64,000 nt of DNA from Planctomycetota bacterium (GCA_035384565.1 DAOOIT010000002.1:8579-72578), one strand, 5' to 3'. Shown: positions 1-38,970, numbered from the stretch's first letter. The notes: generated by a model from the sequence alone, not told the origin. Numbers and translations are program-made.

Positions 1-827
1 ACCGGGCCGCTCCAGGCGAGGCGGCCATCGCGGCTCGGGGTCGCGCCGCAGCCCCGGAGCCAGCGCACGGCCGTGGCGGCATCGAAGCTCATCGCCGCGA
101 TGTCCAGCACACACCGCCCGTAGCGGTCCATCCCCCCGCTCTGAGCCAGATCGGCCGGGCTGGGCTTCTGGAGGAAGCGGCGAGCCTGCCCGCCCGGGCC
201 GAGGCAGAAGACCCCGTGGCGGCTCGCCTGCTCGGGAGTGGCCAAGCAACCCAGGGCCGTCACGCCTGCCGGGGCCAGGCGCACCTCTGTCGGATCGAAC
301 TCCTTGATGTCATCGCCGGCGGCTACCACGACCTGGCCGCACCCCGGCGGGAGCGCCGGCAGGGCAAGATAGGCGGGCAACTGCCGATCGAACAGCGTCT
401 CCGCTACGCCGCTGTTCGACTCGCCGGGGACGGGCATGAACGCCTTGCCGCACGGCCCATAGGCGGGAAGACGCATCGAGTCCCCTCCCGCATGCACGAT
501 CAGGATACGGAGCCTCTCGAGGGCCGCTTGCCAGGCCGCGGGTTCGCCGAGCTCGGCTTGGCGTCCCGCCAGCTCGCGAGTGATCACTTCCATCAGGCAC
601 GCCACCGTGCTCCCACCGCTGCCGACCCGCCTTCCCGCCGGGTCGGGCACCACCAGCGCCCTGCGGATGCCGGCCAGGAGCCCCAACTCCTCGCGCACGC
701 GCAACTGCGCTTCATATGTGCGCGCCTGCCGCTCGTTCGAGGCGGTGACGATCACGTAGTCCCAGTTGTCGGCGGCGGGCCTCGAGTGGCCCCCCGCGCC
801 ATCGGGCAAGTGCGCCATGGCGCTCAT
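1..827 (-). CDS. Partial CDS (runs off the window start; 3' end not seen): fucokinase-domain-like sugar-1-phosphate nucleotidyltransferase/kinase family protein
   Basis: Not in the ORF track because no stop lies inside the window. Manual minus-strand translation from ATG (revcomp of 825-827) is open to position 1: MSAMAHLPDGAGGHSRPAADNWDYVIVTASNERQARTYEAQLRVREELGLL...GSGGSTVACL...ILIVHAGGDSMRLP. The WD(Y/A)(I/V)VLTA.NE.QA..YE.QL N-terminus is reminiscent of the L-fucokinase/GDP-fucose pyrophosphorylase (Fuc_kinase) family. The start overlaps the stop of the upstream Wzy_C gene (ATGA at 824-827). Confidence 0.45.
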   Translation of the reverse strand, partial: MSAMAHLPDGAGGHSRPAADNWDYVIVTASNERQARTYEAQLRVREELGLLAGIRRALVVPDPAGRRVGSGGSTVACLMEVITRELAGRQAELGEPAAWQAALERLRILIVHAGGDSMRLPAYGPCGKAFMPVPGESNSGVAETLFDRQLPAYLALPALPPGCGQVVVAAGDDIKEFDPTEVRLAPAGVTALGCLATPEQASRHGVFCLGPGGQARRFLQKPSPADLAQSGGMDRYGRCVLDIAAMSFDAATAVRWLRGCGATPSRDGRLAWSGP

Positions 828-2209
828 CCCACCCCTCCACGGCTCCAGGCACTGCGCCCAACCAGGGCGGCCGGTTGGCCGGCCACAGGCAGGCGACAGT
901 GCCTCCCGCTCCCCGGCTGAGGCGGACTCTGACGGGCCCGGGCTTGCCTCAGACTGCGGTCGAGGACCTCGAGATAGGCCAGTATGGGAACGATCACGAG
1001 CAGGTCCACCGAGAACGCAGCAGCCGTAGTCTCGGGGATGCTGCGAACGGTGAAGAAGGCCAGGACCGCGCCCGCTTCAATCAGAAGGGTCCGGTGCTGC
1101 GCCGAGAGCGCTGCCAGACTCCGGAGGCTGCGGAAGAACAGCCGCCACCCGACCACCCACGACGCGACGAAGAAGGCCGTGCCGGCCACCCCGGCCTGCA
1201 TCAGCGCGAGGAGCCAGGTGTTGTGCACGTGTTGGAGGCCCATGTGGAACCTGTCTGCCAGGGGCCCAAGACCCAGCACGGGCGATCGCAGGAAGACCTC
1301 CCAGCCCTCCCGCCACACCTCGGTTCGTCCTGTCATCCGCATCAGGTTCTCGCCGGGTCCGCGCCGGTACACGATGCCCTCTATTCTCTCCGCCATGGTG
1401 GCATCTGCAAGCATGGCCAAACCTGCGACGCCCATCGTGAGGAACAATGCACCCTTGCCTCTCTGCACCGACAGCATGAAGAGAGCGGCGACCACGAAGC
1501 CGATGAGCGGCGTTCGGGCGCGTGTGGCGAGCATCAGCACGATGGACGCACCGCACACGGCCCCCCAGAGCACCCGGCCCGGGCCTCTCGCCTGCCACAT
1601 CCGGCTGAAGGCGAACACGGCCGGCACGGCCGCCAGGCGTCCGATGCCCGTGGACCGCGACATGGTCACTCCCCCCACCGCAGGGATCACATTGACAACC
1701 TCGACGTCCGAAGACCACCAATCGCCCGAGCTGAACAGAACATCCCAGGCCACGATCGCCAGCCCCACGGCCAGGGTGGCCACCATCACCCACGTGAGCG
1801 TGAGAAGCTGAGCACTGCCAGACAACGGATCGCTTCGGGCCACCACAGCCTCCAGCACGATGAACACCGACAGGTACAGCGCCCCCCAGTAGAGGGCCTC
1901 GAATGGCGACGCAGAGAGCAGCGAAGTGCCCAGCATGAACAGGCCATACACGGCCATGAGCCGAACGGGACCCGACCTGCCGAAGACGCCGAGCGTGCCC
2001 CGCCGACGAACGAAGAGATAGGCCCCCACGGCAGCGGCGAACGCCAGCAGCGACCGGGCGAAGTGCAGGTATCCAACCAGCCCGGTCGGATTGCGCCAAT
2101 GCCGAGGGTCGGCCTCGATATTGAGCCAGAGCATCACCCAGAGGAGCAAACTCCAGGACAGCGCTCCTCCCAGGGCGGGTCGTCTTACTGCGGGTGCCGC
2201 AGGCCCCAT
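824..2209 (-). CDS. O-antigen ligase / Wzy_C-domain polytopic membrane protein (WaaL/PglL/Wzy-like)
   Basis: 461-aa multi-transmembrane ORF with a Wzy_C-type loop, ...LGLGPLADRFHMGLQHVHNTWLLALMQAGVAGTAFFVASWVV...; it is the last complete gene of the minus-strand cluster. Confidence 0.65.
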   Translation of the reverse strand: MGPAAPAVRRPALGGALSWSLLLWVMLWLNIEADPRHWRNPTGLVGYLHFARSLLAFAAAVGAYLFVRRRGTLGVFGRSGPVRLMAVYGLFMLGTSLLSASPFEALYWGALYLSVFIVLEAVVARSDPLSGSAQLLTLTWVMVATLAVGLAIVAWDVLFSSGDWWSSDVEVVNVIPAVGGVTMSRSTGIGRLAAVPAVFAFSRMWQARGPGRVLWGAVCGASIVLMLATRARTPLIGFVVAALFMLSVQRGKGALFLTMGVAGLAMLADATMAERIEGIVYRRGPGENLMRMTGRTEVWREGWEVFLRSPVLGLGPLADRFHMGLQHVHNTWLLALMQAGVAGTAFFVASWVVGWRLFFRSLRSLAALSAQHRTLLIEAGAVLAFFTVRSIPETTAAAFSVDLLVIVPILAYLEVLDRSLRQARARQSPPQPGSGRHCRLPVAGQPAALVGRSAWSRGGVG

Positions 2210-2219
2210 CGAGTTTCCC

Positions 2220-3419
2220 TCAGGGCGCCTCGGCGCGTCCCAGGGCGAGCGCTTTCTGATAGACCCACATCAGCCGTTCATAGCACCGGTCGCGCGAGTA
2301 CTCGGTCGTGGCCTTCTGGCGGCCCGCCATGCCCATCTCCCGACACAGGCCAGGCTCGGCCCACAAGCGGCGGAGTCTCTCCACCAACTGGGGCACATTG
2401 CCGGGCTCGTAGAGCAGGCCGGTGACCCCTTCTTCCACGATCTCTGGCAGCGCACCGATCCGTGTGGCCACCACGGGCCGCCCCGCGCACATCGCCTCGA
2501 CCAGCACATTGGGGAAGCCCTCGAACCACTTGCTGCAACAGACCAGGATTCGGGTCTCCCGGTAGAACTCCGCGAGCCGTTCCCCTGACAGAAAGCCATG
2601 GAACAACACGTTCGGAGGGGCGCCCGCCACGGCCTCCGGCATCGCGGAGGCGTCGCCCGCCACGGCGAAGCGAAGCTCGGGCAGCGCCCGGGCCGCCGCC
2701 AGAAAGTCCGCGATCCCCTTCTCGGGGCTGAGCCGCCCGACGAAGGAGATCGTGCTGCCTTCCCCAGGCTCCGCCGGTGGGGCTAGCGCCGACCCCGCGA
2801 TCATGTTCGGGACGACCTCGACCCTGTCGGCGGGGATTCCTCGATCAATGAACCGCCTTCGCTGGAACTCTGACAGCACCACAAACACGGCCACGTTCTC
2901 TCGGATCATCCCCGTGATTCTGGCGAAAGCGTTCCGCAGCGCATACCCGAGGCTCTTCGGCAGGCTGCCGGCGCAGTTCTTCAGCACGCACCACAGCTCG
3001 CCCCCTGTGCCCATGCACTTCTCGCACAGGCGGCCGCCCGAGAGCAAGAGGCCGGTCGGGCAGAAGAGGCGGTAGTTCGGGCAGCGCATGACTATGGGGA
3101 TTCCCCGCCTCCGCACCGGCGCCAGAATCGAGGGCGAGAGCAATGGATAGAGATTCTGAACCTGGACGATGTCGAAGTCGCTCCCGCGAAGGAGTTCAGC
3201 CATCTCGCGGCGCGACCTGAAGCTGTGGATGCCGGAGAAGAACGCCCGCGTCTTGCCTGCCAGGGATCCAGGAATACCCGCGGACGACTTCCCGAACCAC
3301 GTCACGCAATGGCCCCGCTCCTCGAGCAGCCGCGCAATGCTCTCGCACGCATGCTCCTCGCCACTCGGCCTAGCGTAGTCATTGTGAACCAAGAGAACTC
3401 TCACCGCATGGCTCCCCAA
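2220..3419 (-). CDS. Glycosyltransferase family 4 (GT-B, group 1)
   Basis: 399 aa; C-terminal GT4 signature EGFPNVLVEAMCAGRPVVATRIGALPEIVEEGVTGLLYEPGN; 11 nt from the next gene. Confidence 0.85.
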   Translation of the reverse strand: MGSHAVRVLLVHNDYARPSGEEHACESIARLLEERGHCVTWFGKSSAGIPGSLAGKTRAFFSGIHSFRSRREMAELLRGSDFDIVQVQNLYPLLSPSILAPVRRRGIPIVMRCPNYRLFCPTGLLLSGGRLCEKCMGTGGELWCVLKNCAGSLPKSLGYALRNAFARITGMIRENVAVFVVLSEFQRRRFIDRGIPADRVEVVPNMIAGSALAPPAEPGEGSTISFVGRLSPEKGIADFLAAARALPELRFAVAGDASAMPEAVAGAPPNVLFHGFLSGERLAEFYRETRILVCCSKWFEGFPNVLVEAMCAGRPVVATRIGALPEIVEEGVTGLLYEPGNVPQLVERLRRLWAEPGLCREMGMAGRQKATTEYSRDRCYERLMWVYQKALALGRAEAP

Positions 3420-3487
3420 CGCATCCTAAGCGGCGTCTGCCACAGGGCGCTGACGACTCCGTGATCGGGGACAGAGCAGAGGACGCG

Positions 3488-5485
3488 CTACTTCCTCAGT
3501 TCGCGCAAGTACCAGTCAGCCCCGAGATGCACATCATCAGCAAGGCCGCGTGGGTACCCTTCGCCGTAGAGAAGGTAATCAGCATCAGTCGGGATGGGCT
3601 GCGTGCCCTTGCCGTAGACGTTCAGCGGGATGATCCTCCTCGTCAGTGTCGCGCCGAAGAGCGGATACTCGTAGCTTCGCGCCGCCAACCACACGGCCAC
3701 TGTCGCGCATTTCGGGACAAGCTCCTCATATCTCCTCATGGCGGGCGCATATCTCCTGTTGTGCGCCATAAGCTGGCTGATCCTATCTCTCCTGAACACC
3801 GACTCCCAGACACTCCCCTGGTAGTGCAGAGCTACCAACGGTCGGTCCGGTCTCACGGTGACAGCAGAGAGGGCCGAGGCACAGCCGATCAGCACGACGA
3901 TGGCAACATAGGCCCGAAGGAACCCCGATCGTGCTCTGAGGCACAAACCCACCACGGGGACCGCGCACACCGCGCAGGGTGGGAAGTACCTGCTGACATC
4001 TGTGCCGTATCTGACACCAAAGGAAACCCCGACAAAGAACAATAGGGAGGCAAAGGAAAACGGCCTGAATCTCCAGTAGCCCATGACCCCGGCTACTGAC
4101 ATAGCCACAGCAATCCATATGAGACCGAAGCCAAGAATCCCCCAATAGGACATGTCCTCATGGATCGTCGGCGGCCTGTTGTAGTTGAACCAGCGGTTTG
4201 GATGGCCGCCGATGGAGAACGGCAGATTCATCCCGATCTTCTCTGCTGCCGTCCTCGGAATCAGCCGCACGAGGACCTGCACTCCGGATACGGGGCTGAC
4301 CGGGGGAAGCCCGTCAAGAGACAGGAACCCAAAACCGATACGCGCGGCGTTCTTCACCCCTTCCCACGCACTGCTACCATAGGAACTGTAGGAACGTTCC
4401 GACACGCCAAGGAGCTGCCGCACCTCTGGGGGACCGATCGGGTTCCCGAACACCCGGTAGTTCTCCAGGTACCCTGAGGGAAGTCCAAAGACAGCGATAC
4501 CAAGAGACACCGAAGCGGCAAAGACAAGCAGGGCCCGCAACCGTCCTCGGGCTGGCTGACAGGTTCCCACAAGGCAGTACAGAAACACTGGCGTCATCGC
4601 TAGGAGGGCAAGCAATGCGGTCACCTTCGTGCCGACGGAGAGGCCCGCCGCCAACCCTGAGAAAGCGAGGTACCTCCATTGGTGGGTTCGCCTGAAGACC
4701 AGGAGGAAGTAGCTAAGTGAGCCAGAGTACGCTGCCACGAGCAAGTCCTGCTGCGTGGTGACCGCCTGGAGCAGGCACTGTGGAAGCAGTGCGAACACAA
4801 GAGAGGCGAATAGGGCTTCCTTCCTGCTGCAACCAAGGCTCGCCGTGATGCCGTAGACGGCGCAGGTAGCAACCCAGTAGGAAAGATACTGAATCAGCTG
4901 GCAAGCGTTCTCGTTCCTTCCAGAAACGAGCAAGGTATACAGCGCAAGCACCGCGTGGTTCTTCGGTGTAGCAATCTGCGCGTAGAAGTTGGCATCATAG
5001 TGCGCGAGGCTACCGTGTTGCAGGTAGTAGGCTACCCTCGCGAGATAGCATGTCATACCGTCCCAGTGAGTGGGCGCTGTGAACAGGGCTACTGCCAAGT
5101 TGGCCAAACCACATGCCGCGGCTGCGGCGAACATTGCGAGAAGGGTGGTTCGCTCATACCATGACCACGACCGCACTTGGGCTGTGAACCAAGAGACGCT
5201 GACCTTGGGCAATAACCTTCTCCGTGGAAGGACCAGTTGCCCGAGCCGACCGTTGACGACAGCAAGCGCGAAGCACAGCGAAGCTGTGATCACGCCATAG
5301 AGTGACCAGTAACCGAGATCACTCAAGCGGTTGATGGCGGACAGAAGGTATCCTCCGAGGACAATCTCTGCGGTCAACAGACAGAAAGAGAGAAGGATGG
5401 TTGCCACATGTCCCCGAGGTCGAAATAGAACGAGCAAGAAGTAGCAGCACAGAAACAGACTCACTGTGGCCAGAATGTTGTGCAA
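3488..5485 (-). CDS. Large polytopic membrane protein, GT-C fold glycosyltransferase-like (ArnT/PMT_2-like)
   Basis: 665 aa with more than 10 predicted TM helices in the N-terminal half and a soluble C-terminal domain; first periplasmic loop HWDGMTCYLARVAYY resembles the D-x-x-x-Y-x-x-A-R loop of ArnT/PMT GT-C enzymes. Lies immediately downstream of a DPM1-like GT2. Confidence 0.5.
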   Translation of the reverse strand: MHNILATVSLFLCCYFLLVLFRPRGHVATILLSFCLLTAEIVLGGYLLSAINRLSDLGYWSLYGVITASLCFALAVVNGRLGQLVLPRRRLLPKVSVSWFTAQVRSWSWYERTTLLAMFAAAAACGLANLAVALFTAPTHWDGMTCYLARVAYYLQHGSLAHYDANFYAQIATPKNHAVLALYTLLVSGRNENACQLIQYLSYWVATCAVYGITASLGCSRKEALFASLVFALLPQCLLQAVTTQQDLLVAAYSGSLSYFLLVFRRTHQWRYLAFSGLAAGLSVGTKVTALLALLAMTPVFLYCLVGTCQPARGRLRALLVFAASVSLGIAVFGLPSGYLENYRVFGNPIGPPEVRQLLGVSERSYSSYGSSAWEGVKNAARIGFGFLSLDGLPPVSPVSGVQVLVRLIPRTAAEKIGMNLPFSIGGHPNRWFNYNRPPTIHEDMSYWGILGFGLIWIAVAMSVAGVMGYWRFRPFSFASLLFFVGVSFGVRYGTDVSRYFPPCAVCAVPVVGLCLRARSGFLRAYVAIVVLIGCASALSAVTVRPDRPLVALHYQGSVWESVFRRDRISQLMAHNRRYAPAMRRYEELVPKCATVAVWLAARSYEYPLFGATLTRRIIPLNVYGKGTQPIPTDADYLLYGEGYPRGLADDVHLGADWYLRELRK

Positions 5486-5570
5486 TCTACTGCCCTAACA
5501 CGCGAAGAGTCTCATACCGGGCCTCGCCCCTGCGCAATCACGTCGGCTCTCGCCGCAACAAACCCGGGGC

Positions 5571-6464
5571 TCACCGGTACTGCGGGCATCGGTCCTCCCC
5601 AGGCTGCGCCCCAGGGTGGTGGCGAACAGGTCCGGGGAGCCTCCAGCGCCGCACGGCAAGGCAGAGGCCCAGGTAACCGCCGATGGTCCGGAGAATGCGC
5701 ATACGGCTCTTGCCGCGGCGGGCGGCGGTGTCGAGGCGAAACGGGACTTCGGAGATGCTGAGGCGCAGGTTCATTGCCTTCTTGAGCATCTCGACGACGC
5801 CCTCGAACCCAGCGCGCTCGATGATTCGAGGGCCGTAAGCAGCCTGGAGGGCAAGGACGGCCCGCCCGCGGAAAACGCGGAAGAAGGAACTCATCGTGTG
5901 GATGCCTGTCATACCCAGGAGACCCCGAAGCACGATGGCGTTCGCCCCGAAGCTCAGGAACCGCCGCCACCAGCTTGTGTGCTCAAACCCGCCACCGTAG
6001 GCGTAGGGTGAGGCGAGGACGACGTCGAGGTCCTCCCGTTCGCACCGTTCGAGCATGCGAAGAAGAGTCTCGACTCGCCCCGTGTTGTCACCCTCCACCG
6101 TGGCGACGAAGTCCGTGGGTTCGAGGTCGCCGGCGAGGTGTTCGAAGGCGGTCCCGAACGCACTCCCTGGTCCCATGTTTCCCTCGTGCTTCAGTACAGC
6201 CAGAGCGAGGCCATGGCCCAGGGCCGCGGCCAGCTCGGGTGTGCCATCGTTGCTCCCATCGTCCACGAGGATGACGCAAGTCCCGTAACGCCCCGCTTGC
6301 GAAGCCGCAAGTTCCCGGAAACTGGCGAAGAGACCCTCGAGATTGGGGGCCTCATTGAGCACCGGTACGATAACGTGCAACGATCGTAACGGGGCGTCCG
6401 CGGCATAGCGCGCACCCTCAAGCATGTTAGCTCTCCGAAGACTCTGTGCTGGGATTCCCATCAA
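5571..6464 (-). CDS. GT2 polyprenyl-phosphate sugar synthase (DPM1/GtrB-like)
   Basis: LHVIVPVLNEAPNLE...CVILVDDGSNDGT...VVLASPYAYGGG: classic GT-A/DXD family 2 similar to dolichyl-/undecaprenyl-phosphate mannose/glucose synthases. True start is probably Met14 (about 6425), giving a 1-nt gap from the upstream gene. Confidence 0.8.
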   Translation of the reverse strand: MMGIPAQSLRRANMLEGARYAADAPLRSLHVIVPVLNEAPNLEGLFASFRELAASQAGRYGTCVILVDDGSNDGTPELAAALGHGLALAVLKHEGNMGPGSAFGTAFEHLAGDLEPTDFVATVEGDNTGRVETLLRMLERCEREDLDVVLASPYAYGGGFEHTSWWRRFLSFGANAIVLRGLLGMTGIHTMSSFFRVFRGRAVLALQAAYGPRIIERAGFEGVVEMLKKAMNLRLSISEVPFRLDTAARRGKSRMRILRTIGGYLGLCLAVRRWRLPGPVRHHPGAQPGEDRCPQYR

Positions 6465-7386
6465 GAACCCCTCGAAGCGCCATGGGGATCATGATTAGGA
6501 ACGCGGGTAGAAACTTCGCTAGTTCGCGCAGCAGCCCATTGAAGAAGAACAGGATCGTATAGGGGAGCAGGCTTAAGAACGCCAGGCGATGGAATGCGTC
6601 GCTCTTCCTGAACGCGACCGTAGACAGAAGGGCAAAGCCCGCCACCTCCACTGTCCATAGTGGGACAATCGATGTCAACAGGTCGTGCACGTTGGAGTTG
6701 GACGCGATGTGGAAGGCAGTGGTGAACTGAGTCGGCTTGGCCCCGTAGTACGCCCGGGTGCCAAGCATAGCGACCGCCCACAGCAGGAGACTCGCTAGAG
6801 CGAGAAGAATCCCGCGTCTGTCCAGCCTCCGTTGGGCGACGAGGTCGATGACATACCACACAATGAGAAAGGCTATCTGCTCGCGATTGAGGGCTCCCAA
6901 AAAGACGATCACGGGCAAGTACTGAACCCTGCCACTTCGGAACAGGGCCAACCCCAGTGTGTAAAACCAGAGCGTGATGAAATCGCCTTCCATGTAGTAC
7001 CCTGTTACCGATAGGGGTATTACAACCTGCAACAGAAGCACGCCCACTATCGCGCCGCTCTGGCCGAAGCCTCTCCACAGGTACCGGTGAAAGCAGATGA
7101 AGATGGCCAGAAACGTAACCATGGAGATCGACGCATAGGAGAAGACATGCTGCATACGCCTGTTCCGCACAACTGTTGAGGCCATGGTTTCGACAACCGT
7201 TCCAAGCAGGGGTTTCAGAATCCTGAACTGATAGGGCGATTGCGCCTGCCCGGTCAGGATCCTGTCAACATGTGCGATACGCTTCTCGACGTTTGGCAAT
7301 ATCACGGTCCTGCAGACATAATATGTCGATATCATCGCCAGCATCACGGGTACTACAAGACCATGTAGCCCTCTCGGTTGCATCGC
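6427..7386 (-). CDS. Polytopic membrane protein of unknown function (candidate flippase/GtrA-like partner)
   Basis: Hydrophobic ORF (MISTYYVC...FLAIFICFHRYLW...LLLQVVIPLSVTGYY...). The listed ORF reaches 7647, but the first ~85 codons are Arg-rich and non-protein-like; start proposed at MQPRGLHG (about 7386). Confidence 0.4.
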   Translation of the reverse strand, partial: AMQPRGLHGLVVPVMLAMISTYYVCRTVILPNVEKRIAHVDRILTGQAQSPYQFRILKPLLGTVVETMASTVVRNRRMQHVFSYASISMVTFLAIFICFHRYLWRGFGQSGAIVGVLLLQVVIPLSVTGYYMEGDFITLWFYTLGLALFRSGRVQYLPVIVFLGALNREQIAFLIVWYVIDLVAQRRLDRRGILLALASLLLWAVAMLGTRAYYGAKPTQFTTAFHIASNSNVHDLLTSIVPLWTVEVAGFALLSTVAFRKSDAFHRLAFLSLLPYTILFFFNGLLRELAKFLPAFLIMIPMALRGVLDGNPSTESSES

Positions 7387-7643
7387 CTCCAACCAGCGCC
7401 GACAGCTGGTAAGCCTGTTGAGACACCACCGTCCTCGCATGGTATTGACTGCTCCATGCCGACTGCTAGCTCTCGTAATCCTGTGGGGCGCTGCAAGCCT
7501 GCACTGCTCCGACAAGGCCGTTCTCCTGCATCCTCGGGTCATCAGGCGGGGCGATTGATTGCGCGCGCTCAGTTGGTGAGGAGTATGCCGACGTTGGCGC
7601 TCTCGTTCAGGACGCGGCGATGGGGATAAGGCGTTCCATCGGC

Positions 7644-8642
7644 TCACACGGCTTCAGTGGGAATCTGGAGGTTCCGCCGGGCTTCGGCGAGGCAGAGGCG
7701 AATGGCGTCCGCCATCGAGTGCTTCGGCTCGTAGCCGAGCAGGGTGTGGGCCTTGGTAAGGTCGGGCCGCCGTCGCATGATGTCTTTGTACCTGCCGAAG
7801 ACTTCCTGGAAGGGGATGAACTTGAGCTTGAGGGGCCTCCCCGTGTCGGCCAGGCGGTGGATGAGGCGCGCGGCGTCGAGGACGCTCATCTCCTCGGGGC
7901 TGCCGAGGTTGATGATCTGGCCGACGGCCCGCTCGTTCTCCATCGCCAGAATGGTGCCCTGGATGAGGTCGTCCACGTAGGCCATCGAGCGGGTCTGGGA
8001 ACCGTCGCCGTGGATGGGCACCTCCTCATGGCGCAGGATCTTGTGAATGAAGATGGGGATGTGGCCGCCGACCCAAGTGAAGCTGGAGCGAGGGCTGAAT
8101 CCGCCGAAGTAGCGGAGGACGACCACGGGCACGGCGTAGTCGTGATGGTAGGCGAACGCAAGCTGCTCGCCGTATAGCTTGGCCACGGCATAGCTCCAGC
8201 GGCGGATGAGGCTGGGGCCGAGCAGCAGGTCGCCGTCCTCGCGGAAGGGCAGGTCGGGCGACATGCCATAGACGTCCGACGTGGAGGCGAAGATGACCTT
8301 CTTCCGCCACATCCGCGCGGCATCGAGGACGTTCTCGGTGCCCTGGGCGTTCACCTTGAGGGTGGCCATGCTCGAATCGGCCTCGGCCACCTTCTTCACG
8401 GCAGCCAGATGCACGAGGGTGTCGGCCTCCCGGGCGAGAATCTTGAGGGTGTCCATGTCCAGAATGTCAACGGGGTAGAACCTGAATGCCTCGTTGGCGA
8501 GCTGATGCCGGATGTTCTCCATCCGGCCGAAGGACATGTTGTCAATACCGATGACGCGGCAGCCGCGCCCGAGCAAGGCATCAAGCAGGTGTGAGCCGAT
8601 CATCCCGGCCACGCCCGTAATCAGTACTACTCCATCTGACAT
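7644..8642 (-). CDS. NAD-dependent epimerase/dehydratase (extended SDR; UDP-sugar 4-epimerase / UDP-glucuronate decarboxylase family)
   Basis: N-terminal Rossmann VLITGVAGMIGSHLLDALL, catalytic YAVAKLYGE (YxxxK), 332 aa. Confidence 0.85.
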   Translation of the reverse strand: MSDGVVLITGVAGMIGSHLLDALLGRGCRVIGIDNMSFGRMENIRHQLANEAFRFYPVDILDMDTLKILAREADTLVHLAAVKKVAEADSSMATLKVNAQGTENVLDAARMWRKKVIFASTSDVYGMSPDLPFREDGDLLLGPSLIRRWSYAVAKLYGEQLAFAYHHDYAVPVVVLRYFGGFSPRSSFTWVGGHIPIFIHKILRHEEVPIHGDGSQTRSMAYVDDLIQGTILAMENERAVGQIINLGSPEEMSVLDAARLIHRLADTGRPLKLKFIPFQEVFGRYKDIMRRRPDLTKAHTLLGYEPKHSMADAIRLCLAEARRNLQIPTEAV

Positions 8643-8817
8643 TCGTTGTCTCCCTGCTGACCGTTGGCCAATACCCTGGTGTTCTCACGAGGCCATCGTG
8701 CCGGCCGACTGGAGGGCAGGTCGAGATGACATTGGCTCTCGTGTTCGTCCACACGCTTGCGAGGAAGCCTGAAGTGCCTCATGTGACAGCCCCCCGATTG
8801 TTGCCTGTCGCCGCAAC

Positions 8818-10056
8818 TTAGCCACCCGCAAGCTGTTGATAGATCTCGCTCACCGCCTCAGCCTTGCGCTCGAAGGTGAACAGGCCCGCGCGCTCCAGCG
8901 CCCCGGCGGCCAGCTTCTGCCGCTCGGCCTCGTGCGCCCAGAGATGCCCGAGGGCGTCCGCGAACCGAGAGCAGATGGAGGCCCGGCCCTCGACGGGAAC
9001 CTTCACGCCACACTCCGAGGTCACGACGTCGGCGAAGCCGCAGTGGTCGAGGCACACGACCGGCACGCCCTGTGAGAGGGCCTCCATCACCACCGTCGTC
9101 GTGAGGTCCTTGATGCTGGTGAGCGCGAAAACGTGGGAGTTCCCGAGGAGGGCGATCGCCTGCGGCCGCGGCAGGCGCCCGTGCCACGTGCAGCGGGCGT
9201 CCACGTCCAGCCTTCGGGCGATGCGCCGCCACTCCGTGGTGCAGGGCCCCTCGCCCAGGATGTGCAGCTCCCATCCCACCGAAGCCGGCAGGCGCGCGAC
9301 CGCGTGCAGCAGGAGCGGGAGCGCCTTGCCGGGGTCGTGCGCGCCGCTCCACGAGATGCGGAGCGGCTCGCCGTCGAGCCGAATGGAATGGGCCGCCGCG
9401 ATCGGCTCCGGAGGGGCCGTCTCGCAGATGACCTGGCTGTCCTCGCCATAGTGCCTCTGAATCTCGCGCCGAATGCCTTCGGTGGCGGCGATGATTCCGC
9501 CGCGAGCCCTGGGGAAGGCTCTCCTGGGGCGAGGCAGCCACCTCTTGTGCAGCGTGTTGAGCACGTTCCGGCTGGCGAAATGGACGAGTCCTCGCAAACC
9601 CAGCATCGGCAGGAGCCGCCAGGGGGTGTTCTCCAAGCCGCCGATCGGCCCCCAGACGAACGGCACGTCCAGCCTCCACAGGTAGCCGGGCTCTCGGAAG
9701 GTCACCCACGTGAGCTGGTGCACCAAGTCGAAGCCCGGGTCCCGTTGAAGCTGGAGGGCGAGCCGGTAGGCGTCCCTCTGCCAGCGCCGGCAGGTCCAGA
9801 GCAGGGCCGGCTTCCACAGGCGCGAGAGCCGGAGATAGCGCGTCCTGGGCACATAGCAGAACTGAAGATGGTCCCGAAGCGCCGGATCGCGATGCAGTTC
9901 CGCCTCGATGTTGGCGCGGAAGAGATCGCTCGTGAGGACCAGGAGGTCGTGGTGCCTGGAGAGCGCCTTGACCCAACCCCAGCCCACGCCCGGCTCCGAC
10001 CCGCGCGTCGGGTCGCAGGAGTAGGCCGAGACGAGGACTCTGAGACGCCGTTTCAT
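8818..10056 (-). CDS. Glycosyltransferase family 4
   Basis: Real start at MKRRLRVLVSAYSCDP (ATG 10054-10056; the 573-aa track ORF has a spurious Arg/Gly-rich N-extension); ...GFADVVTSECGVKVP... GT-B C-terminal domain. ATGA overlap with the upstream YdjC gene. Confidence 0.8.
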   Translation of the reverse strand: MKRRLRVLVSAYSCDPTRGSEPGVGWGWVKALSRHHDLLVLTSDLFRANIEAELHRDPALRDHLQFCYVPRTRYLRLSRLWKPALLWTCRRWQRDAYRLALQLQRDPGFDLVHQLTWVTFREPGYLWRLDVPFVWGPIGGLENTPWRLLPMLGLRGLVHFASRNVLNTLHKRWLPRPRRAFPRARGGIIAATEGIRREIQRHYGEDSQVICETAPPEPIAAAHSIRLDGEPLRISWSGAHDPGKALPLLLHAVARLPASVGWELHILGEGPCTTEWRRIARRLDVDARCTWHGRLPRPQAIALLGNSHVFALTSIKDLTTTVVMEALSQGVPVVCLDHCGFADVVTSECGVKVPVEGRASICSRFADALGHLWAHEAERQKLAAGALERAGLFTFERKAEAVSEIYQQLAGG

Positions 10057-10814
10057 CCACCGCTCCGAGCCGAAGGTCCCGTGGCCGCGAGCCGCAGGAG
10101 GTCCGCACAGTCGGCCAACGGACGCTGGCTCAGCCTGTCCACAAGAACCCCCGAGGCGTCGTACATGGGATGGATCATGACTTCCGCGGACTGCGTCCGC
10201 GGCGTCACGCCTCTCCTGGCGAGAAGGTGCCGGTAGTCCTCGGCCGAGCCGAAGTAGTTCGTCCACGCGAGCCCCGCGCGTCTCAGGCGCAGGTTCGCCA
10301 GCTTGCGATAGGCCCAGGTGCCGAGGGATCGGCGCGGCCCGCAGTTCCGGGCGATCCGCACGTGCGGAATGCCCTCCTCGAGGCAGAGCCGCACCACCAC
10401 GGAGGCGATGGCCCACTCCTCGTGCACATGCTCGTGGGAGTCTGCGTGGGAGATCGGAATGCCACGCCTGCGGCACGCGGCAACCTGCGCCCCGAGTTCC
10501 CCCCGCAGCGCCGTCGTTTCGCTCGCGGACAGCCGCCACACGTGGGGGCGTTTGCGCAGGACGAAGGCGCCGTCTTCGTTGCAGAACCGCCGGCAGCGTC
10601 GGATCTCCTCGGTGAGGGGCAGGCCGTCAGTGAGGACGAGATGAACGCCCACGCGATGGGCAAGCCCGCGCTCGTGAGCCAGCTCGCACGCCTCCTCGAA
10701 CCCGGGCATGTTCGGCATGATCGTGGTGTCGGAGCAGTACCCGCGCTCGAAGCTCTCGAGGACGGCCCGGTTCACGTTCCCATCGAGCCCGAAGTCGTCG
10801 GCATTAACGACCAT
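10053..10814 (-). CDS. YdjC/ChbG/HpnK-family carbohydrate deacetylase
   Basis: MVVNADDFGL...HRVGVHLVLTDG... is the hallmark N-terminus of YdjC-like polysaccharide deacetylases; 253 aa. Confidence 0.8.
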   Translation of the reverse strand: MVVNADDFGLDGNVNRAVLESFERGYCSDTTIMPNMPGFEEACELAHERGLAHRVGVHLVLTDGLPLTEEIRRCRRFCNEDGAFVLRKRPHVWRLSASETTALRGELGAQVAACRRRGIPISHADSHEHVHEEWAIASVVVRLCLEEGIPHVRIARNCGPRRSLGTWAYRKLANLRLRRAGLAWTNYFGSAEDYRHLLARRGVTPRTQSAEVMIHPMYDASGVLVDRLSQRPLADCADLLRLAATGPSARSGG

Positions 10815-11730
10815 CGCGCTGGCCTCGGGGCAGCCCGCGGCAGATGCCCGCCAGATTGCCGCAGACCCGTTTGAAGCTCTCGCCCGGCCTTCGGCAGGTC
10901 ACGACTCGCCCGATGGAGAGCAGCATCCTGGCCAGCAGGCCCAGGTAGCACCGTGGCACGGAGAGCCCGTGTTTCCTCACCAGGTAGAGGCGGTTGCGTA
11001 CCTCGAGCTTCCCGAACCGGTAGGCATCGAGTCTTCCTGAAGGCGAAGGGTAGTGGCAGAAGCCCGCCTGCGCGACCACGGCCAGCCTGTACCGCCTGCT
11101 GACGGAGTAACTGAAGTCCACGTCCTCGAGATAGCTGTAGCCGTCGAACCACTCGTCGAAGCGGAACTCGTCAAGCACGGCCCGACGCCACACCGAGGCG
11201 CCGCTCGGCAGCCACTCGGTGAACATCGTCTCGGACACCCTGCCGACGATGGTCTGCCACCCGCTGGGCATGACCACGCCTTTCTCCTTGCTGTAGAGCC
11301 CCAGCCAGGAAGCCAGGCGGGAGGACTTGAGCCAGGATGCGGCTCTCGGCGGGCAGTTCGCCCAGTTGAAGGCCGCGCCGCCGACGTCTGCCGGGGCTTC
11401 CTCCCAGAAGCGCAGCATAGCCTCCATCGCCCCGGGCTCCAGCACGGCGTCGTCGTCCAGGAAACCGATCAGCCCGATGCCGCGGTCCACGGCGTCCACG
11501 CCCGCGTTCCGTTGCCGGGTCGCCGAAGGAGGCAGGTGGCGGACGTAGGCGACGTTCAGCGCGCCACGCTCCGCCGCGACCCACTCGACCGGCTCCTCGC
11601 TCGCATCCACGATCACCACTTGGGAGGGCGGACAGGACTGGGCGGCCAGGCTCGCCAGCATGCGGCGGAGGTCGTCCGGCCGGTCCTTCGTCGCCACCAC
11701 GAGGGCCACCTTGTTCCGGAAGCTGCTCAT
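10804..11730 (-). CDS. Glycosyltransferase family 2
   Basis: Start at MSSFRNKVALVVATKDRPDDLRRMLASLAAQ (ATG 11728-11730), ...VVIVDASEEP..., DXD-like FLDDDAV. Overlaps neighbours by 4 and 11 nt. Confidence 0.75.
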   Translation of the reverse strand: MSSFRNKVALVVATKDRPDDLRRMLASLAAQSCPPSQVVIVDASEEPVEWVAAERGALNVAYVRHLPPSATRQRNAGVDAVDRGIGLIGFLDDDAVLEPGAMEAMLRFWEEAPADVGGAAFNWANCPPRAASWLKSSRLASWLGLYSKEKGVVMPSGWQTIVGRVSETMFTEWLPSGASVWRRAVLDEFRFDEWFDGYSYLEDVDFSYSVSRRYRLAVVAQAGFCHYPSPSGRLDAYRFGKLEVRNRLYLVRKHGLSVPRCYLGLLARMLLSIGRVVTCRRPGESFKRVCGNLAGICRGLPRGQRDGR

Positions 11731-12911
11731 GCGGCCGAATGCCCGCCCATGCGCCTCCTCTGGAGGAACCTCGCCACGGCGTCCCGCATGCCGGCCGTGA
11801 AGCTCGGGATCGAGAATGCCTTGCCCCGCTCGGCCAGGTGCCGGCACAGCTCCTGCTGAAGCTCCGTCCGGCGCAACACGGTGTCAATCTTGGCCACGGC
11901 ATCGTCCAGGCCGGCAAAGGTGAGCAGGGGATGAGCGACAATCTCCGCCTGTCCACCTTCAGAGGGCACGAACACGATGCTGCCTGCCTTGACCAGTTCC
12001 GCCACGGATATGCCAAAGCCTTCCCGCGGACAGGCGTTGATGCCAAAGCGATGGGTGCTGAGCAGCTCCCTCTTCGTCTCCCCGCTGCACGGCCCTCGGG
12101 CTGTAACCCAGCGCCCCTGCTCGGCGCAGAGGCGGCTGACCTTTCGTCCGTACGGGTCGCGCCCGATCGCCCCTGCGATGTGCAGGTGGATGTCGTGGCC
12201 GCGGCTCCGCACGTGCAAGAGCACAGCGATGATGTCCTCGATGCGCTTCTCGGGCGAGATGCGCCCGATGTAGACGAAGCCATGCTCCTTCGCGGGGAAT
12301 GGGACCTCGGGGAAATCCCCCGCCACGGGCGGGTACAGCACGTCGGCCTCCACGCCGTGACGGCGCTTCATCAGGGCGGCCGTCCACTGTGAATTGGCCA
12401 GGAACAGGTTGTCGCGTGCGAAGGGTTCTCGTCCCGATGGCTTCCGAAGCATGCGGGCGCAGGCGAGGTAGCCTCTGCGGAGGGGGTTGTCGCGGTACGC
12501 CAGGCCCGCCCACCCCGGAGCAGGGGGGGTGCACGCCCGTCGGAGCGCCTCGTCCCAGGAGAAGTCCGCAATCAGGTGGATCCCGGGAACCCCGAAATCC
12601 GCGACGTTGTACCCGCTGATGAGCACGTCGAAGTCGGCCGCCAGCGCGCGGCACAGGCGGGCGTGGATCGCTCCACGCCAGGCGGCGAACCGGGCGGTCC
12701 GCCCCAGGAGGAAAGAGAGGGGATGCCGCCTCACGCGGAAGTCTTCCGGGGCCAGCCGCGTCGCGTAGGCCTCATTCAGCCTGGCGATGTCCACTGGCCC
12801 ACAGGTGGCCAGAGTTACGTCATGCTCGTGCCGGAGCTCTTCGATTGCCCACAGCACGGCCGCCTCGGAACCGCCGAGCCGAAGAGAGGGATGGGCGATG
12901 GCAATCCTCAT
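11727..12911 (-). CDS. Glycosyltransferase family 4
   Basis: Start MRIAIAHPSLRLGGSEAAVLW (ATG 12909-12911); C-terminal REGFGISVAELVKAGSIVFVPSEGGQAEIV. Confidence 0.8.
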   Translation of the reverse strand: MRIAIAHPSLRLGGSEAAVLWAIEELRHEHDVTLATCGPVDIARLNEAYATRLAPEDFRVRRHPLSFLLGRTARFAAWRGAIHARLCRALAADFDVLISGYNVADFGVPGIHLIADFSWDEALRRACTPPAPGWAGLAYRDNPLRRGYLACARMLRKPSGREPFARDNLFLANSQWTAALMKRRHGVEADVLYPPVAGDFPEVPFPAKEHGFVYIGRISPEKRIEDIIAVLLHVRSRGHDIHLHIAGAIGRDPYGRKVSRLCAEQGRWVTARGPCSGETKRELLSTHRFGINACPREGFGISVAELVKAGSIVFVPSEGGQAEIVAHPLLTFAGLDDAVAKIDTVLRRTELQQELCRHLAERGKAFSIPSFTAGMRDAVARFLQRRRMGGHSAA

Positions 12912-12915
12912 TGCC

Positions 12916-13719
12916 TCATGATCCGCCGCCCGGAGGCAGTGCCTGGGCATGAGCGCCCGGATGCCTCCGGCAGACGTAGATCACCTCGTCCTCGTCCAGA
13001 GCATGGCGGGCAGCATCCAGGTGGCGAACGTAATCTTCGACTGCGACGGCGAAGCCCGCGTCCTCCAGCCGGCTCCTGTAGTCGAGGCCATAGAGCCTGA
13101 CCTCGTCGGAGAAGCCGAAGTGCCTGGCCCGTTCCTCAGGGGAGAAACCGGGGTCCTCCAGAGTGTGCTCGCGCCGCCGGTCTACATCCACCTGAAGGAT
13201 GGCATAGCCTCCGGGACGGAGCACGCGGTACACCTCGCGAAGCGCGCGGCGGTCATCCTCCACCTGCTCCAGCACGTGGTTGGCGATGACGACGTCGAAC
13301 GTCTCGTCGCCGAAGCCGATGTGTGTGATGGACATGACGAGATCGGGCGCCTCGCACAGCTCGTGGATGAACGAGACCATCAGGTCGGCCGTCACGTACT
13401 CGATGGCCGGATGCCGGCGAATCTCGCGCGCGAGACACCGCTCGGGCGCGAAGTGGAGCACACGCAATCGGCTCCGGAAGAACGCCATCCGGTCCCTCAG
13501 GAACAGGTAGAGCAGGCGGTGCCGCCCGAGAGACAGGCAGGAGGGGCACCAGTCGTTCTCTCTGCCGCCGAAGGGCAGGAACTTCGAGAAGCGATGGCCG
13601 CAGATCGGGCACTCCACCCGGTTGCCGCAGCGGTACCACAGACCCAGGAGCATCCGCTGGCCGCTGCGGAGCCCTCGGCACACGCGTGGCCCCAGGAGCC
13701 GTTTGAGAAGCCTCTTCAT
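12916..13719 (-). CDS. Class I SAM-dependent methyltransferase
   Basis: Start MKRLLKRLLG; ...VLHFAPE... DVVIANHVLEQVEDDRRALREVYRVLRPGGYAIL (Methyltransf_11/23-like motifs). The upstream part of the 456-aa track ORF is Arg/Pro-rich junk. Confidence 0.75.
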   Translation of the reverse strand: MKRLLKRLLGPRVCRGLRSGQRMLLGLWYRCGNRVECPICGHRFSKFLPFGGRENDWCPSCLSLGRHRLLYLFLRDRMAFFRSRLRVLHFAPERCLAREIRRHPAIEYVTADLMVSFIHELCEAPDLVMSITHIGFGDETFDVVIANHVLEQVEDDRRALREVYRVLRPGGYAILQVDVDRRREHTLEDPGFSPEERARHFGFSDEVRLYGLDYRSRLEDAGFAVAVEDYVRHLDAARHALDEDEVIYVCRRHPGAHAQALPPGGGS

Positions 13720-13726: not shown

Positions 13727-14608
13727 TCAGCCTTCCCCCGCGCTGGCGGGCGTGGCCCCAGAGGGCGTGAAGAAGACCTCGCTCGGCGCCTCGAAAGGGG
13801 CCGCGAAGCCAGGAGGCAGGACTCCGATGTACGGCTTGCCGCACCGCGGGGCGACGGCCTGGCGGTAACAGCGGATCGCCTGACGCTTGGCAGACAGCAC
13901 CGGCGCGATGTCCAGCTTCCAGGCATTCGCCAGGCCCGGCTCGGCGAGCCGGCGAAGGGGCAGTTTGTACCATCCCCAGACCAGGTACCAGTGCACCGCG
14001 CACGGAAAGCCGCTTCGGCGAACGGCTTGCGCCACAATCTCGCTGGCGGCCGCATGGTCGGCCCAGCAGTCCAGAGGATGGGGCGCGTAGACCTCCTGGG
14101 GGGCCGCCTGGCGCAGGACCTCGGCCACCGCGGACACCGCCGTGGCAAACCCCTCCTGCCCGTTGCGGGGCAAGCGGCCGTCGGGCAGTCCAAGCCAGTG
14201 CATGGCCTGGGGGCCGAGCCCCAGGCGCGCGCCCGCCTCGCAGGCCAGAAGACGGCGCGCCCGGGCGATCTCCTCGACAGGCGCACCGCAGCAGCGCTGG
14301 TGCGATGCCTCGCCGCTGGTCAGGAAGGCCACGCCCACGCGGGCGTCGGCCTGAGCCTTGAGGGCGAGAAGTCCTGCCGTGGCGAATACCTCGTCATCGG
14401 GGTGAGGGGCAATCACCAGGGCAGGACCCCCGGGGAGGGCCTCCGGCCTGGCGCGGCGGGCCAGAACCCATTGCAGAACGCGGCGCCTCGGCGCCCCCTG
14501 CCAGGCGCGAAGCTGCGCCACAACTGTGTCGCCCAGCGCGCGTTTGAGGAGGGACTTCACCCCACCCGCCTGCACAGCCGCCTTCGCGGTGAGAGGCAAC
14601 GGACGCAT
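13727..14608 (-). CDS. PIG-L/LmbE-family N-acetylglucosaminyl deacetylase
   Basis: LVIAPHPDDEVFATAGLL...H (the PIG-L zinc-binding HPDDE motif); start MRPLPLTAKAA (ATG 14606-14608), overlapping the stop of the upstream gene. Confidence 0.75.
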   Translation of the reverse strand: MRPLPLTAKAAVQAGGVKSLLKRALGDTVVAQLRAWQGAPRRRVLQWVLARRARPEALPGGPALVIAPHPDDEVFATAGLLALKAQADARVGVAFLTSGEASHQRCCGAPVEEIARARRLLACEAGARLGLGPQAMHWLGLPDGRLPRNGQEGFATAVSAVAEVLRQAAPQEVYAPHPLDCWADHAAASEIVAQAVRRSGFPCAVHWYLVWGWYKLPLRRLAEPGLANAWKLDIAPVLSAKRQAIRCYRQAVAPRCGKPYIGVLPPGFAAPFEAPSEVFFTPSGATPASAGEG

Positions 14609-15444
14609 CACTCGTACTTCCTGAGTCCGCTCAGTTCCAGAAGCACATGGCCGAGGAATCGCGGGCCGTCCAGAAAGTCCCGACGCCAGACCTTTCTGGG
14701 TTCGTGGACGAGGCGCCATAGCCACTCGAACCCGCAGCGGCCCACCCAGGCCGGCGCCCGCTTGACTCTGCCGCTCAGGAACCCGAAGGCCGCTCCGACC
14801 CCGACCGCGACGGGGACCCTCAAGCGTTTCTGGTGCTCGGCAATCCACCTCTCCTGCTTCGGCAGACCGAGCCCGACCCAGAGAACATCGGGCCGGGCCT
14901 CGTTGATCATCCTGACATGGGCTTCATCTTCCTCGGGCGAAACGGCCCCGAAGGGCGGGGAGAACGTGCCGGCCACCCCGTGGTTCGGGTACTCGCGCTC
15001 CAGACGCTGGCGCAGAAGGGAGAGGGTCTCCGGTCGGTCCCCATAGAAGAAGCTGCTGTAGCCGCGTTCGTTTGCGCGCTCGAGGAACGCCCGCATCAGG
15101 TCGGCCCCGGGAATGCGCTGGATGCCGCGGAATCCCTTCAGGCGAGCGACCCAGACGGGCGCAATCCCATCGGGGACCCAGAGATCCGCCGAGTTCAGCA
15201 CGGCCTTGAGGTCCGGGCTCTTGTGCGCTTCCCAGATGCCGTGGAACCCTGTGACCACGATCCGCCGGCACTGGTGTTCGCGCGCCTCGACCCAGCCGGC
15301 CATCTCCTGGATCACCTGGCGAGGGCTCGTCAGGTGCACCCGGGCCCCCAGGATCCTGACCGCCGGAGCGCGCGTTCCTGCGCCGCCGTCTGCGTTCGAG
15401 GCGCGGGCGTGGGTGTCAGGCGATGGGCAAGAGCCTGCGGGCAT
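14608..15444 (-). CDS. WecB/TagA/CpsF-family glycosyltransferase (GT26)
   Basis: ...VTGFHGIWEAHKSPDLKAVLNSADLWVPDGIAPVWVARL...VLWVGLGLPKQERWIAEH... matches the GT26 family (TagA/WecG); start uncertain between 15444 and 15483. Confidence 0.8.
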   Translation of the reverse strand: MPAGSCPSPDTHARASNADGGAGTRAPAVRILGARVHLTSPRQVIQEMAGWVEAREHQCRRIVVTGFHGIWEAHKSPDLKAVLNSADLWVPDGIAPVWVARLKGFRGIQRIPGADLMRAFLERANERGYSSFFYGDRPETLSLLRQRLEREYPNHGVAGTFSPPFGAVSPEEDEAHVRMINEARPDVLWVGLGLPKQERWIAEHQKRLRVPVAVGVGAAFGFLSGRVKRAPAWVGRCGFEWLWRLVHEPRKVWRRDFLDGPRFLGHVLLELSGLRKYE

Positions 15445-16285: not shown

Positions 16286-16326
16286 CGCCCGAACCAGGGG
16301 ACGCACCAGCGGAACTCCCCCATCGC

Positions 16327-25952: not shown

Positions 25953-25954
25953 CG

Positions 25955-37541: not shown

Positions 37542-37555
37542 AGGAGGACACGAGG

Positions 37556-38920: not shown

Positions 38921-38970
38921 ACTGCCACGGGGGAGTTGGCGACCGCAACACCGAGAAGAGGAGATGAACT

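Follow-up and report, generated by a model that had tools for sequence, protein, structure and literature searches.

A planctomycete Wzy_C protein predicted to act as an en bloc glycan ligase, encoded next to a fucose salvage gene at the end of an ABC-dependent surface-glycan operon

What does a Wzy_C-domain membrane protein do in a planctomycete glycan operon, and does the overlap of its gene with a gene for fucose activation bear on that role? The question is raised by a 64,000-nt stretch of DNA from a Planctomycetota bacterium (GCA_035384565.1 DAOOIT010000002.1:8579-72578; 67% G+C), here called the window. The Wzy_C gene lies at window positions 824-2209 on the minus strand, and its stop codon overlaps the start of an FKP-type gene (fucokinase/GDP-fucose pyrophosphorylase) that runs off the window at position 1. 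This region is the 3' end of a single-strand surface-glycan operon of ∼35 kb, of which ∼31 kb is in the window. The exact Wzy_C protein was found on eight public contigs, four of which (L001-L004) were used for comparison. L001 is 100% identical to window positions 1-9486 and runs 8 kb past position 1; with this extension 72 kb of the source genome was in view. The public label of the identical protein is "O-antigen ligase family protein [Planctomycetota bacterium]", of metagenome-assembled genome origin, and a scan of genome contigs returned relatives at ≤50% identity only (most at 31–40%) and no genome of the same species. We favor, with moderate confidence, the reading that the protein is an en bloc glycan ligase acting after export by an ATP-binding cassette (ABC) transporter.

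The open reading frame (ORF) starts with ATG and encodes an integral membrane protein of 461 amino acids (aa); the NCBI gene call begins at codon 21, a TTG, and has 441 aa. An earlier note on this DNA, made from the sequence alone, had described it as a Wzy_C-domain protein, and an HMM scan bore this out: Pfam Wzy_C (PF04932) matched residues 219-348 of the 461-aa protein at 54.4 bits vs. a cutoff of 31.7, and it was also matched by all 18 aligned homologues. An AF2 (AlphaFold2) model built with 18 homologues in the alignment (pLDDT 75.6, pTM 0.78) predicts 12 long helices, the ninth and tenth of which are joined by a large loop, as in the 12-transmembrane (TM) GT-C(B) fold of the O-antigen ligase WaaL (GT121; 7TPG/7TPJ from Cupriavidus metallidurans, and the E. 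coli enzyme) with its large periplasmic TM9-TM10 loop. In a Foldseek search of the PDB with this model, WaaL (7TPG; E 4e-7) was the sole match below E 1e-3, and RodA and FtsW came next; no solved Wzy of the clan was among the PDB matches for comparison. The charged loops obey the positive-inside rule, which places the conserved residues R191, R232, R295, D319, R320, H329, R389, and E393 in the periplasm.

WaaL carries an Arg/Arg/His triad (R191/R265/H313 in C. metallidurans, R215/R288/H338 in E. coli), in which the two Arg bind undecaprenyl-pyrophosphate (Und-PP) and the His is proposed to be catalytic, while related inverting polymerases have Asp or Glu at the His position, and polymerases and SEDS enzymes rely on an Asp as base (PMC10920833). 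An hhalign alignment pairs R232/R295/H329 of the Wzy_C protein with R215/R288/H338 of E. coli WaaL, where these positions are mutationally defined, and the two proteins have the motif HxHN-x9-GxxG in common (locally QHVHNT...G..G here, VHLHNE...G..G in E. coli WaaL, and EHAHND in 7TPG). H329 thus fills the catalytic position of WaaL, which holds neither Asp nor Glu here. The E. coli polymerase Wzy(O16) aligned at E 0.24, and its alignment is not comparable to that of WaaL. The protein is assigned a WaaL-like GT-C(B) fold and is predicted to be an en bloc glycan ligase.

The surrounding genes indicate an ABC-exported pathway, in agreement with the earlier note. A Wzm ABC-2 permease (28374-29190, start approximate; ABC2_membrane 82.4 bits; best NCBIfam match Wzm/RfbD), a Wzt ATPase with a C-terminal Wzt_C carbohydrate-binding domain (26893-28242; ABC_tran 84.1 bits, Wzt_C 47.3 bits) and an initiating WecA/MraY-family polyprenyl-phosphate HexNAc-1-phosphate transferase (29212-30732; Glycos_transf_4 141.5 bits; TIGR02380 133 bits, below cutoff) stand in one cluster, on the minus strand like all other operon genes below. 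This is the single initiating transferase in one same-strand array. The best NCBIfam matches of Wzt were a teichoic-acid export ATP-binding subunit and galactan-export Wzt/RfbE, all below cutoff, and its homologues are named "lipopolysaccharide transport system ATP-binding protein". No ORF scanned across the window matched a Wzx/MOP flippase (Polysacc_synt), a polysaccharide co-polymerase (PCP; Wzz/GNVR) or an outer-membrane polysaccharide export protein (OPX; Poly_export), and the planctomycete relatives have no Wzx, PCP or OPX within 10 kb.

A Wzt C-terminal carbohydrate-binding domain together with several methyltransferases is a signature of ABC-dependent, end-capped O-polysaccharide systems such as E. 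coli O8/O9a, after which WaaL acts; the Wzy_C protein is likewise placed downstream of an ABC-transporter-dependent pathway. With the O8/O9a type the operon shares WecA-type initiation, Wzm, Wzt with its C-terminal binding domain, methyltransferases, and no need of Wzy or Wzx. It differs in having far more glycosyltransferases (GTs), two GT-C enzymes, deacetylases and an amidotransferase, and in carrying a ligase-like gene and a nucleotide-sugar salvage gene in the same array, with a NusG paralog at its head.

The salvage gene was examined on both sides of the window boundary. On the minus strand from 827 to 1 a frame of 275 codons contains no stop and runs off the window, as had been claimed; it is missing from the ORF track because ORFs running off the window are not listed there. 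This frame matched PF07959 (Fucose_pyrophosphorylase) at 95.9 bits (cutoff 34) and the NCBIfam model NF009948 (bifunctional fucokinase/fucose-1-P guanylyltransferase) at E 4e-29. The earlier note's fucokinase-domain gene is therefore present in the window by its pyrophosphorylase half only, the kinase half lying beyond position 1. The extension upstream of position 1 that the note had suggested gave the complete gene: on the identical contigs (L001:8660-11887) FKP has 1075 aa, with PF07959 at 184.8 bits, GHMP_kinases_N at 39.7 bits, and GHMP_kinases_C at 35.5 bits.

Full-length FKP aligned with Bacteroides fragilis FKP (BfFKP; PDB 5YYS, 9IIT) at E 4e-124 over both domains, the kinase end to end. 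The catalytic and fucose-binding residues of BfFKP have been defined by mutagenesis and crystallography (PMC11982464). According to the HMMER alignment, the pyrophosphorylase-site residues D31, H73, R80, K89, D136, H168, Q186, and K187 are all conserved, as D62, H112, R119, K128, D172, H204, Q220, and K221 (all inside the window), and so are the kinase-site residues R592, W599, D601, T602, E751, Q761, and D762. The two enzymes have the same two-domain architecture and a salvage role that feeds surface glycans. They differ in length (1075 aa here, 949 aa in BfFKP), in a much more divergent pyrophosphorylase domain here, and in the environmental planctomycete host, where the gene is terminal in a glycan operon. 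Judged from its sequence, the FKP gene is complete and apparently functional, and the feed of a 6-deoxyhexose into the pathway, at which the earlier note had hinted, is well supported. A phylogenetic study of FKPs (PMC12732313), which makes no mention of Planctomycetes or of gene context, reported that clade B members accept C5-modified fucose derivatives.

In the reading that we favor, the glycan would be built on Und-PP-HexNAc in the cytoplasm, capped by methylation and exported by Wzm/Wzt, and the GT-C enzymes may decorate the exported glycan in the periplasm. The Wzy_C protein would then transfer the Und-PP-bound glycan en bloc to its final acceptor, at a predicted periplasmic site composed of the three WaaL-equivalent residues and R191, D319/R320, and E393. 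Co-transcribed FKP would turn free L-fucose into GDP-L-fucose for a glycosyltransferase of the cluster, and a secreted GH95 α-L-fucosidase encoded next door could, in this strain, supply the free fucose from environmental glycans. The most likely acceptor, and the default one, is lipid A-core, which would make the protein a WaaL-type O-antigen ligase. A ligase would also agree with the presence of His at the catalytic position and with the location of the gene near the array end.

The earlier note had considered that the host might lack classical lipopolysaccharide (LPS), a premise for which we found no support. LptD and BamA were present in every planctomycete genome examined by Speth et al. 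(2012; PMC3422733), a passage of a 2025 review cites a demonstration of LPS in Gemmata (PMC12673574), and an older genome paper, as quoted in PMC3422733, described Rhodopirellula as being without an O-antigen pathway. The LPS-insertion machinery is carried by Planctomycetota; this evidence is at the level of the phylum and does not come from the source genome.

A different function is suggested by the company that the protein keeps in other phyla. Its clade comprises 333 representative clusters at 50% identity (E<1e-30), with hosts in Elusimicrobia, Nitrospirae, Acidobacteria, Planctomycetes, Lentisphaerota, Myxococcales, and Desulfobulbus. We surveyed the cluster genes by tblastn in 27 related loci, over 6-10 kb around the family member. 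Orthologues of the GT4 at 8818-10056 were found near family members in >20 loci (42–64% identity), and those of the GT2 at 10804-11730 (43–63%) and of the GT4 at 11727-12950 (38–54%) in many loci; these three genes were assigned by Pfam. Orthologues of the WecG/TagA/CpsF-family GT at 14608-15483 (Glyco_tran_WecG 203.9 bits; TIGR00696 159.7 bits), the enzyme predicted to attach the second sugar to Und-PP-GlcNAc, accompany the family at 39–62% identity. The WecG, GT4, GT2, and GT4 genes and the Wzy_C clade are thus kept together across at least six phyla (38–64% protein identity), and in locus L033 the five genes are contiguous. Ordinary O-antigen clusters show far less conservation than this set. 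Its sharing across phyla implies that the oligosaccharide is conserved and that there is some specificity for the glycan, and the gene order and identities suggest that the WecG-GT4-GT2-GT4 set makes a widespread conserved oligosaccharide.

The protein could, then, be a Wzy-type polymerase that joins Und-PP-linked repeats made by this set, in which case Wzm/Wzt would serve another glycan pathway that has been fused to this one, with the flippase gene located somewhere else; we regard this as unlikely, though it is the main rival. In Acidobacteria-type loci the family member lies among GT genes, together with Wzx (L015, L034) or a Wzc-type tyrosine-kinase co-polymerase (L029/L030, L035), and a second, divergent Wzy_C gene stands at the cluster edge after WecA, which is the typical place of a ligase. 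Both Wzy_C types of these loci carry a WaaL-like His motif (HxHND in the second gene), and in a sequence test of the second genes as the "real" WaaL neither type matched 7TPG. O-antigen/EPS polymerases with a Wzy_C domain, for example WzyEPS of Myxococcus xanthus (MXAN_7442), have the same Pfam domain, belong to the same clan and lie among GT genes. Of the four Wzy_C proteins of M. xanthus, one is WaaL and the other three are assigned as polymerases (PMC7484181). The best NCBIfam names for four neighboring GTs of our operon are those of the exopolysaccharide (EPS) proteins EpsA/D/E/H, far below threshold.

Residue conservation, counted in a 126-sequence alignment of the Wzy_C family, also bears on this choice. 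G188, R191, G294, R295, G313, G315, G340, and G343 are invariant, D319, R320, and E393 are conserved at 98% and R232 at 96%. The His-lacking members (15 of the 126) retain D319/R320; among them is the 58%-identical planctomycete homologue P0007 (L005 10001-11386). From the sequences, such members are either inactive paralogs or an indication that the base of the clade is not His. A replaceable His and a near-invariant D319 would suit a polymerase, and the position of D319, 10 residues upstream of H329, makes the test of His vs. Asp/Glu suggestive but not decisive.

Several further observations weigh against an en bloc ligase that acts on lipid A-core and is fed with fucose. The family-profile search of PDB sequences with the Wzy_C family gave no chain at E≤10, no NCBIfam model (O-glycosylation ligase models included) matches the protein, and with hhalign the match to the E. 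coli ligase was a weak one (E 0.003, probability 9.8%); the link to WaaL came from structure comparison only. H329 is kept in only 88% of the 126 sequences (Gln in 9, Ser in 5, and Glu in 1), whereas R191, D319/R320, and E393 are extra conserved positions relative to WaaL. The family travels with a fixed GT set across phyla, which suggests glycan-specific recognition, a trait more typical of Wzy; the gene lies inside the glycan cluster and is co-inherited with GTs, whereas E. coli waaL is in the core-oligosaccharide cluster. Wzm/Wzt are 25 kb away from the Wzy_C gene, and the two Wzt-homologue loci retrieved are self-contained ABC clusters without the Wzy_C module. The lipid A-core acceptor is something that we purely infer. 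For FKP, the full protein scored 614.7 bits on NF009948 vs. the equivalog cutoff of 721, i.e., it is a family member below equivalog level, and V137 of BfFKP, a residue that points toward the methyl group of fucose in a modelled complex (PMC11982464), is D173 here, the sole difference noted. D-Arabinose is accepted as well by FKPs from the B. fragilis clade (PMC12732313), so that L-fucose is the strongly favored substrate, short of proof.

The polymerase reading accounts for the Acidobacteria-type loci and for the co-inheritance with particular GTs; in the window it has its own costs. It requires a flippase and a co-polymerase that are unseen in the 31-kb array, in the rest of the window and around the genes of planctomycete relatives, with Wzm/Wzt assigned to another glycan although all genes of the array are on the same strand, with only one initiating transferase among them. 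It also meets His instead of Asp/Glu at the WaaL catalytic position, and WaaL as the top structural match. By comparison, a family found both in this ABC array and in Wzx/Wzc loci that have a second Wzy_C gene is most economically read as a ligase: the Wzx/Wzc loci would then contain a polymerase and a ligase, and the ABC array, without need of a polymerase, a single Wzy_C gene. We therefore prefer the ligase.

It appears improbable that the protein is an O-oligosaccharyltransferase of the WsaB/PglL kind, which would place the exported, methylated and fucosylated glycan on proteins of the S-layer or elsewhere on the surface. O-oligosaccharyltransferases share the Wzy_C domain and the conserved His motif, and PglL_A and Wzy_C_2 domains mark them. 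In Firmicutes, S-layer glycans are made by ABC-dependent pathways that end in a Wzy_C transferase, Geobacillus WsaB being the example, and Bacteroides puts FKP-derived fucose on capsules and glycoproteins. The two PMT/ArnT-like GT-C enzymes of the cluster would suit such a role, and the S-layer protein of the planctomycete Kuenenia is heavily O-glycosylated, with no transferase named in PMC5088730. The earlier note's suggestion of a PglL-type general protein O-glycosylation enzyme was nevertheless not upheld: PglL_A (PF15864) and Wzy_C_2 (PF11846) are absent in 18/18 family members, even at E≤1, none of the NCBIfam models for O-glycosylation ligases matches, the cluster has no linked candidate gene for a glycoprotein, and among the 21 genome loci retrieved the clade occurs only in diderm, LPS-bearing phyla. 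Since the phylum has the LPS machinery, an alternative acceptor is not needed. For protein O-glycosylation we found no positive evidence here. A bolder version, still less probable, is that the whole clade is a dedicated transferase of a conserved methylated, fucosylated glycan to a non-LPS acceptor (surface or S-layer proteins), using D319/R320 instead of His. If true, it would supply an O-oligosaccharyltransferase for planctomycete glycoproteins, as part of a surface-glycan system that spans several phyla and draws on fucose salvaged from the environment.

We now turn to the junction between the two genes. The FKP ATG (827-825) and the Wzy_C TGA (826-824) have 4 nt in common, and the ATGA stop/start overlap described in the earlier note (824-827, minus strand) was recovered by direct reading, with a GGAGG Shine-Dalgarno-like run 6 nt upstream (sequence gtggaggggtgggATGAgcgcc; junction gtggaggggtgggATGAgcg). 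Independent gene calls on L001-L004, which encode the identical protein, gave the same 4-nt overlap. It probably results in co-translation of Wzy_C and FKP. The overlap looks like an ordinary compact junction of a high-GC operon, and FKP is probably a recently appended sugar-supply gene, not a ligase partner. The case that adjacency and overlap have no functional meaning for the ligase, FKP being a supply gene appended in one sublineage, is in our judgment fairly probable, and it is compatible with a ligase, a polymerase or an O-oligosaccharyltransferase. Other junctions of the array also overlap, by 4 or 11 nt (L002 gene calls), and the overlapped 3' end of the Wzy_C gene codes for a non-conserved, low-confidence cytoplasmic tail. 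In a relative whose Wzy_C is 60% identical (L031), FKP follows after a 132-nt gap. The 66% relatives (L027/L028) and the 58% relative (L005) have a small unknown gene downstream and lack FKP, and L027 has a GDP-fucose-synthase-like gene nearby instead (238 bits, below cutoff). No FKP homologue was found within 6-10 kb in the 21 distant genome loci (L006-L026) and the distant contigs L029/L030. On the other side, the 89%-identical relative (L038/L039) has kept the same ATGA overlap with FKP and the same GGAGG run, i.e., there is at least short-term maintenance.

The extension past position 1 shows that the array ends with FKP, not with Wzy_C, which corrects the earlier note's statement that the cluster ends with the ligase gene. 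The FKP stop is followed by 390 nt with a GC-rich hairpin, and then by the GH95 gene; no strict U-tract terminator was found after FKP, the hairpin being without a T-run. A promoter-like TTGACC-17-CATACT lies between the two genes. The GH95 α-L-fucosidase (L001 12278-15025, 915 aa, 528 bits) is a separate unit, and the protein has an inserted F5/8-type-C domain and an N-terminal hydrophobic leader. GH95 follows FKP in this strain only and is lacking in the 89%-identical relative. A gene for a Cache-domain histidine kinase lies beyond GH95 on the opposite strand.

Both genes are members of known families in an under-studied phylum, and the first already has its public O-antigen ligase family label. 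Planctomycete cell surfaces are poorly characterized; an older genome paper, as quoted in PMC3422733, even described Rhodopirellula as being without an O-antigen pathway. A complete NusG-led ABC-dependent operon with a ligase-like enzyme and fucose salvage shows that an elaborate surface polysaccharide with a capped end is made by at least some members. The pairing of FKP with GH95 suggests an environmental polysaccharide degrader that decorates itself with scavenged fucose, as gut Bacteroides does. FKPs accept clickable fucose analogues, and FKP may thus serve as a handle: labelling with a fucose analogue could show whether the glycan is destined for LPS or for proteins. A clade with a fixed GT entourage and a non-invariant His bears on the difficulty of telling ligases from polymerases by sequence, and this multi-phylum Wzy_C clade may matter more than the Wzy_C/FKP finding itself.

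Together with the genes named above, the operon encodes some ten GTs of the GT-A/GT-B kinds, six or more methyltransferases, a pair of deacetylases, one amidotransferase, and two GT-C enzymes that resemble ArnT/PMT. Immediately upstream of Wzy_C, after a 10-nt gap, lies a GT4 gene (2220-3404; Glycos_transf_1 108.7 bits). The pair is conserved in planctomycete relatives, the GT4 being 75–77% identical and adjoining in L027, L028, and L031. Next comes an ArnT/PMT-like GT-C gene with a TTG start (3488-5485; PMT_2 34.3 bits, hydropathy). The public call of this protein starts at 5056 (522 aa) and leaves a 514-nt gap, whereas the longer TTG-started ORF encodes 665 aa, which puts the Pfam match at residues 179-305 and gives four more predicted TM helices at the N terminus; the public annotation probably calls this gene too short. 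The GT2 at 5571-6425 resembles polyprenyl-phosphate sugar synthases (Glycos_transf_2; best NCBIfam match PpgS at 44.8 bits, far below cutoff) and is likely to make the donor for the adjacent GT-C. A 305-aa membrane protein with ∼6 TM helices by hydropathy (6427-7344) had no Pfam or NCBIfam match and no homologue in any related locus, and it is followed by an NAD-dependent sugar epimerase/dehydratase of the short-chain dehydrogenase/reductase type (7644-8642; GDP_Man_Dehyd and Epimerase, NCBIfam sub-threshold only).

The segment 3488-8642, between the GT4 at 8818-10056 and the GT4 that adjoins Wzy_C, is a variable, lineage-specific cassette. Here it holds the epimerase, the 6-TM protein, the PpgS-like GT2, and the PMT_2 GT-C; the 89% relative (L038 4774-8735) has PMT_2, a methyltransferase and a GT2, and the 60% relative (L031 8282-8809) a methyltransferase only. 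It looks like a swappable module for periplasmic side-chain modification.

Beyond the cassette, a YdjC-like carbohydrate deacetylase (10053-10814; YdjC 146.4 bits) is encoded between the first two genes of the conserved core set. The GT2 of that set was considered as a fucosyltransferase from its co-occurrence with FKP in L031 and L038; this is unsupported, as it is common in FKP-less loci. An S-adenosylmethionine (SAM) methyltransferase (12916-13707; Methyltransf_11; start approximate, set from the 263-aa L031 orthologue) and a PIG-L family de-N-acetylase (13727-14560; PIG-L 76.1 bits; start approximate, with an L031 orthologue) precede the WecG gene. They are followed, past WecG, by an FkbM-family methyltransferase (15416-16310, start approximate; Methyltransf_21; TIGR01444 93.2 bits), an asparagine-synthase-like amidotransferase (16327-18072; Asn_synthase, weak NCBIfam matches) and a further SAM methyltransferase (18167-18775; Methyltransf_23, Methyltransf_11).

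The ORF at 18851-20431 encodes a 526-aa, 12-TM protein (hydropathy) without a Pfam match of its own. It was considered as a hidden Wzx flippase, which was ruled out: its homologues carry PMT_2/PMT domains (PF13231 or PF02366) and ArnT-like names, so this is the second GT-C and not a flippase. Three GT4 genes were found by Pfam at 20480-24632 (mechanical ORFs 20480-21967, 21739-23067, and 22974-24632, the true starts being shorter), followed by a GT2 (24185-25300; Glycos_transf_2 102.7 bits) and two SAM methyltransferases (25314-26012 and 25955-26803; Pfam), which are candidates for chain-end capping. The array is headed, next to the WecA gene, by a NusG/KOW paralog (30741-31622; NusG 29 bits, KOW) that may be an operon-specific antiterminator of the RfaH/UpxY kind. 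A NusG gene also adjoins WecA in the distant loci L029/L030.

Outside the operon, window positions 40592-62393 are dense in polysaccharide-degradation genes, with GH123 (one full gene and one fragment), GH5, DUF2961, a DUF4838 fused to an FGE-sulfatase domain, PQQ-like beta-propellers, and an F5/8-type-C protein. These genes fit a glycan-scavenging lifestyle able to supply free fucose. Two tandem GFO_IDH_MocA oxidoreductase genes at 37538-40353 (plus strand) are 79% identical over 680 nt, indicating a recent duplication, and adjoin a ThuA-like gene and a sugar ABC importer. An intergenic sequence of ∼180 nt at 32039-32219, upstream of a sugar-binding-protein gene, recurs at 82% identity ∼40 kb away upstream of the Cache histidine-kinase gene (L001 17138-17313), and shorter similar pieces are present at window positions 31857-32030 and 50940-51063 (vs. 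L003).

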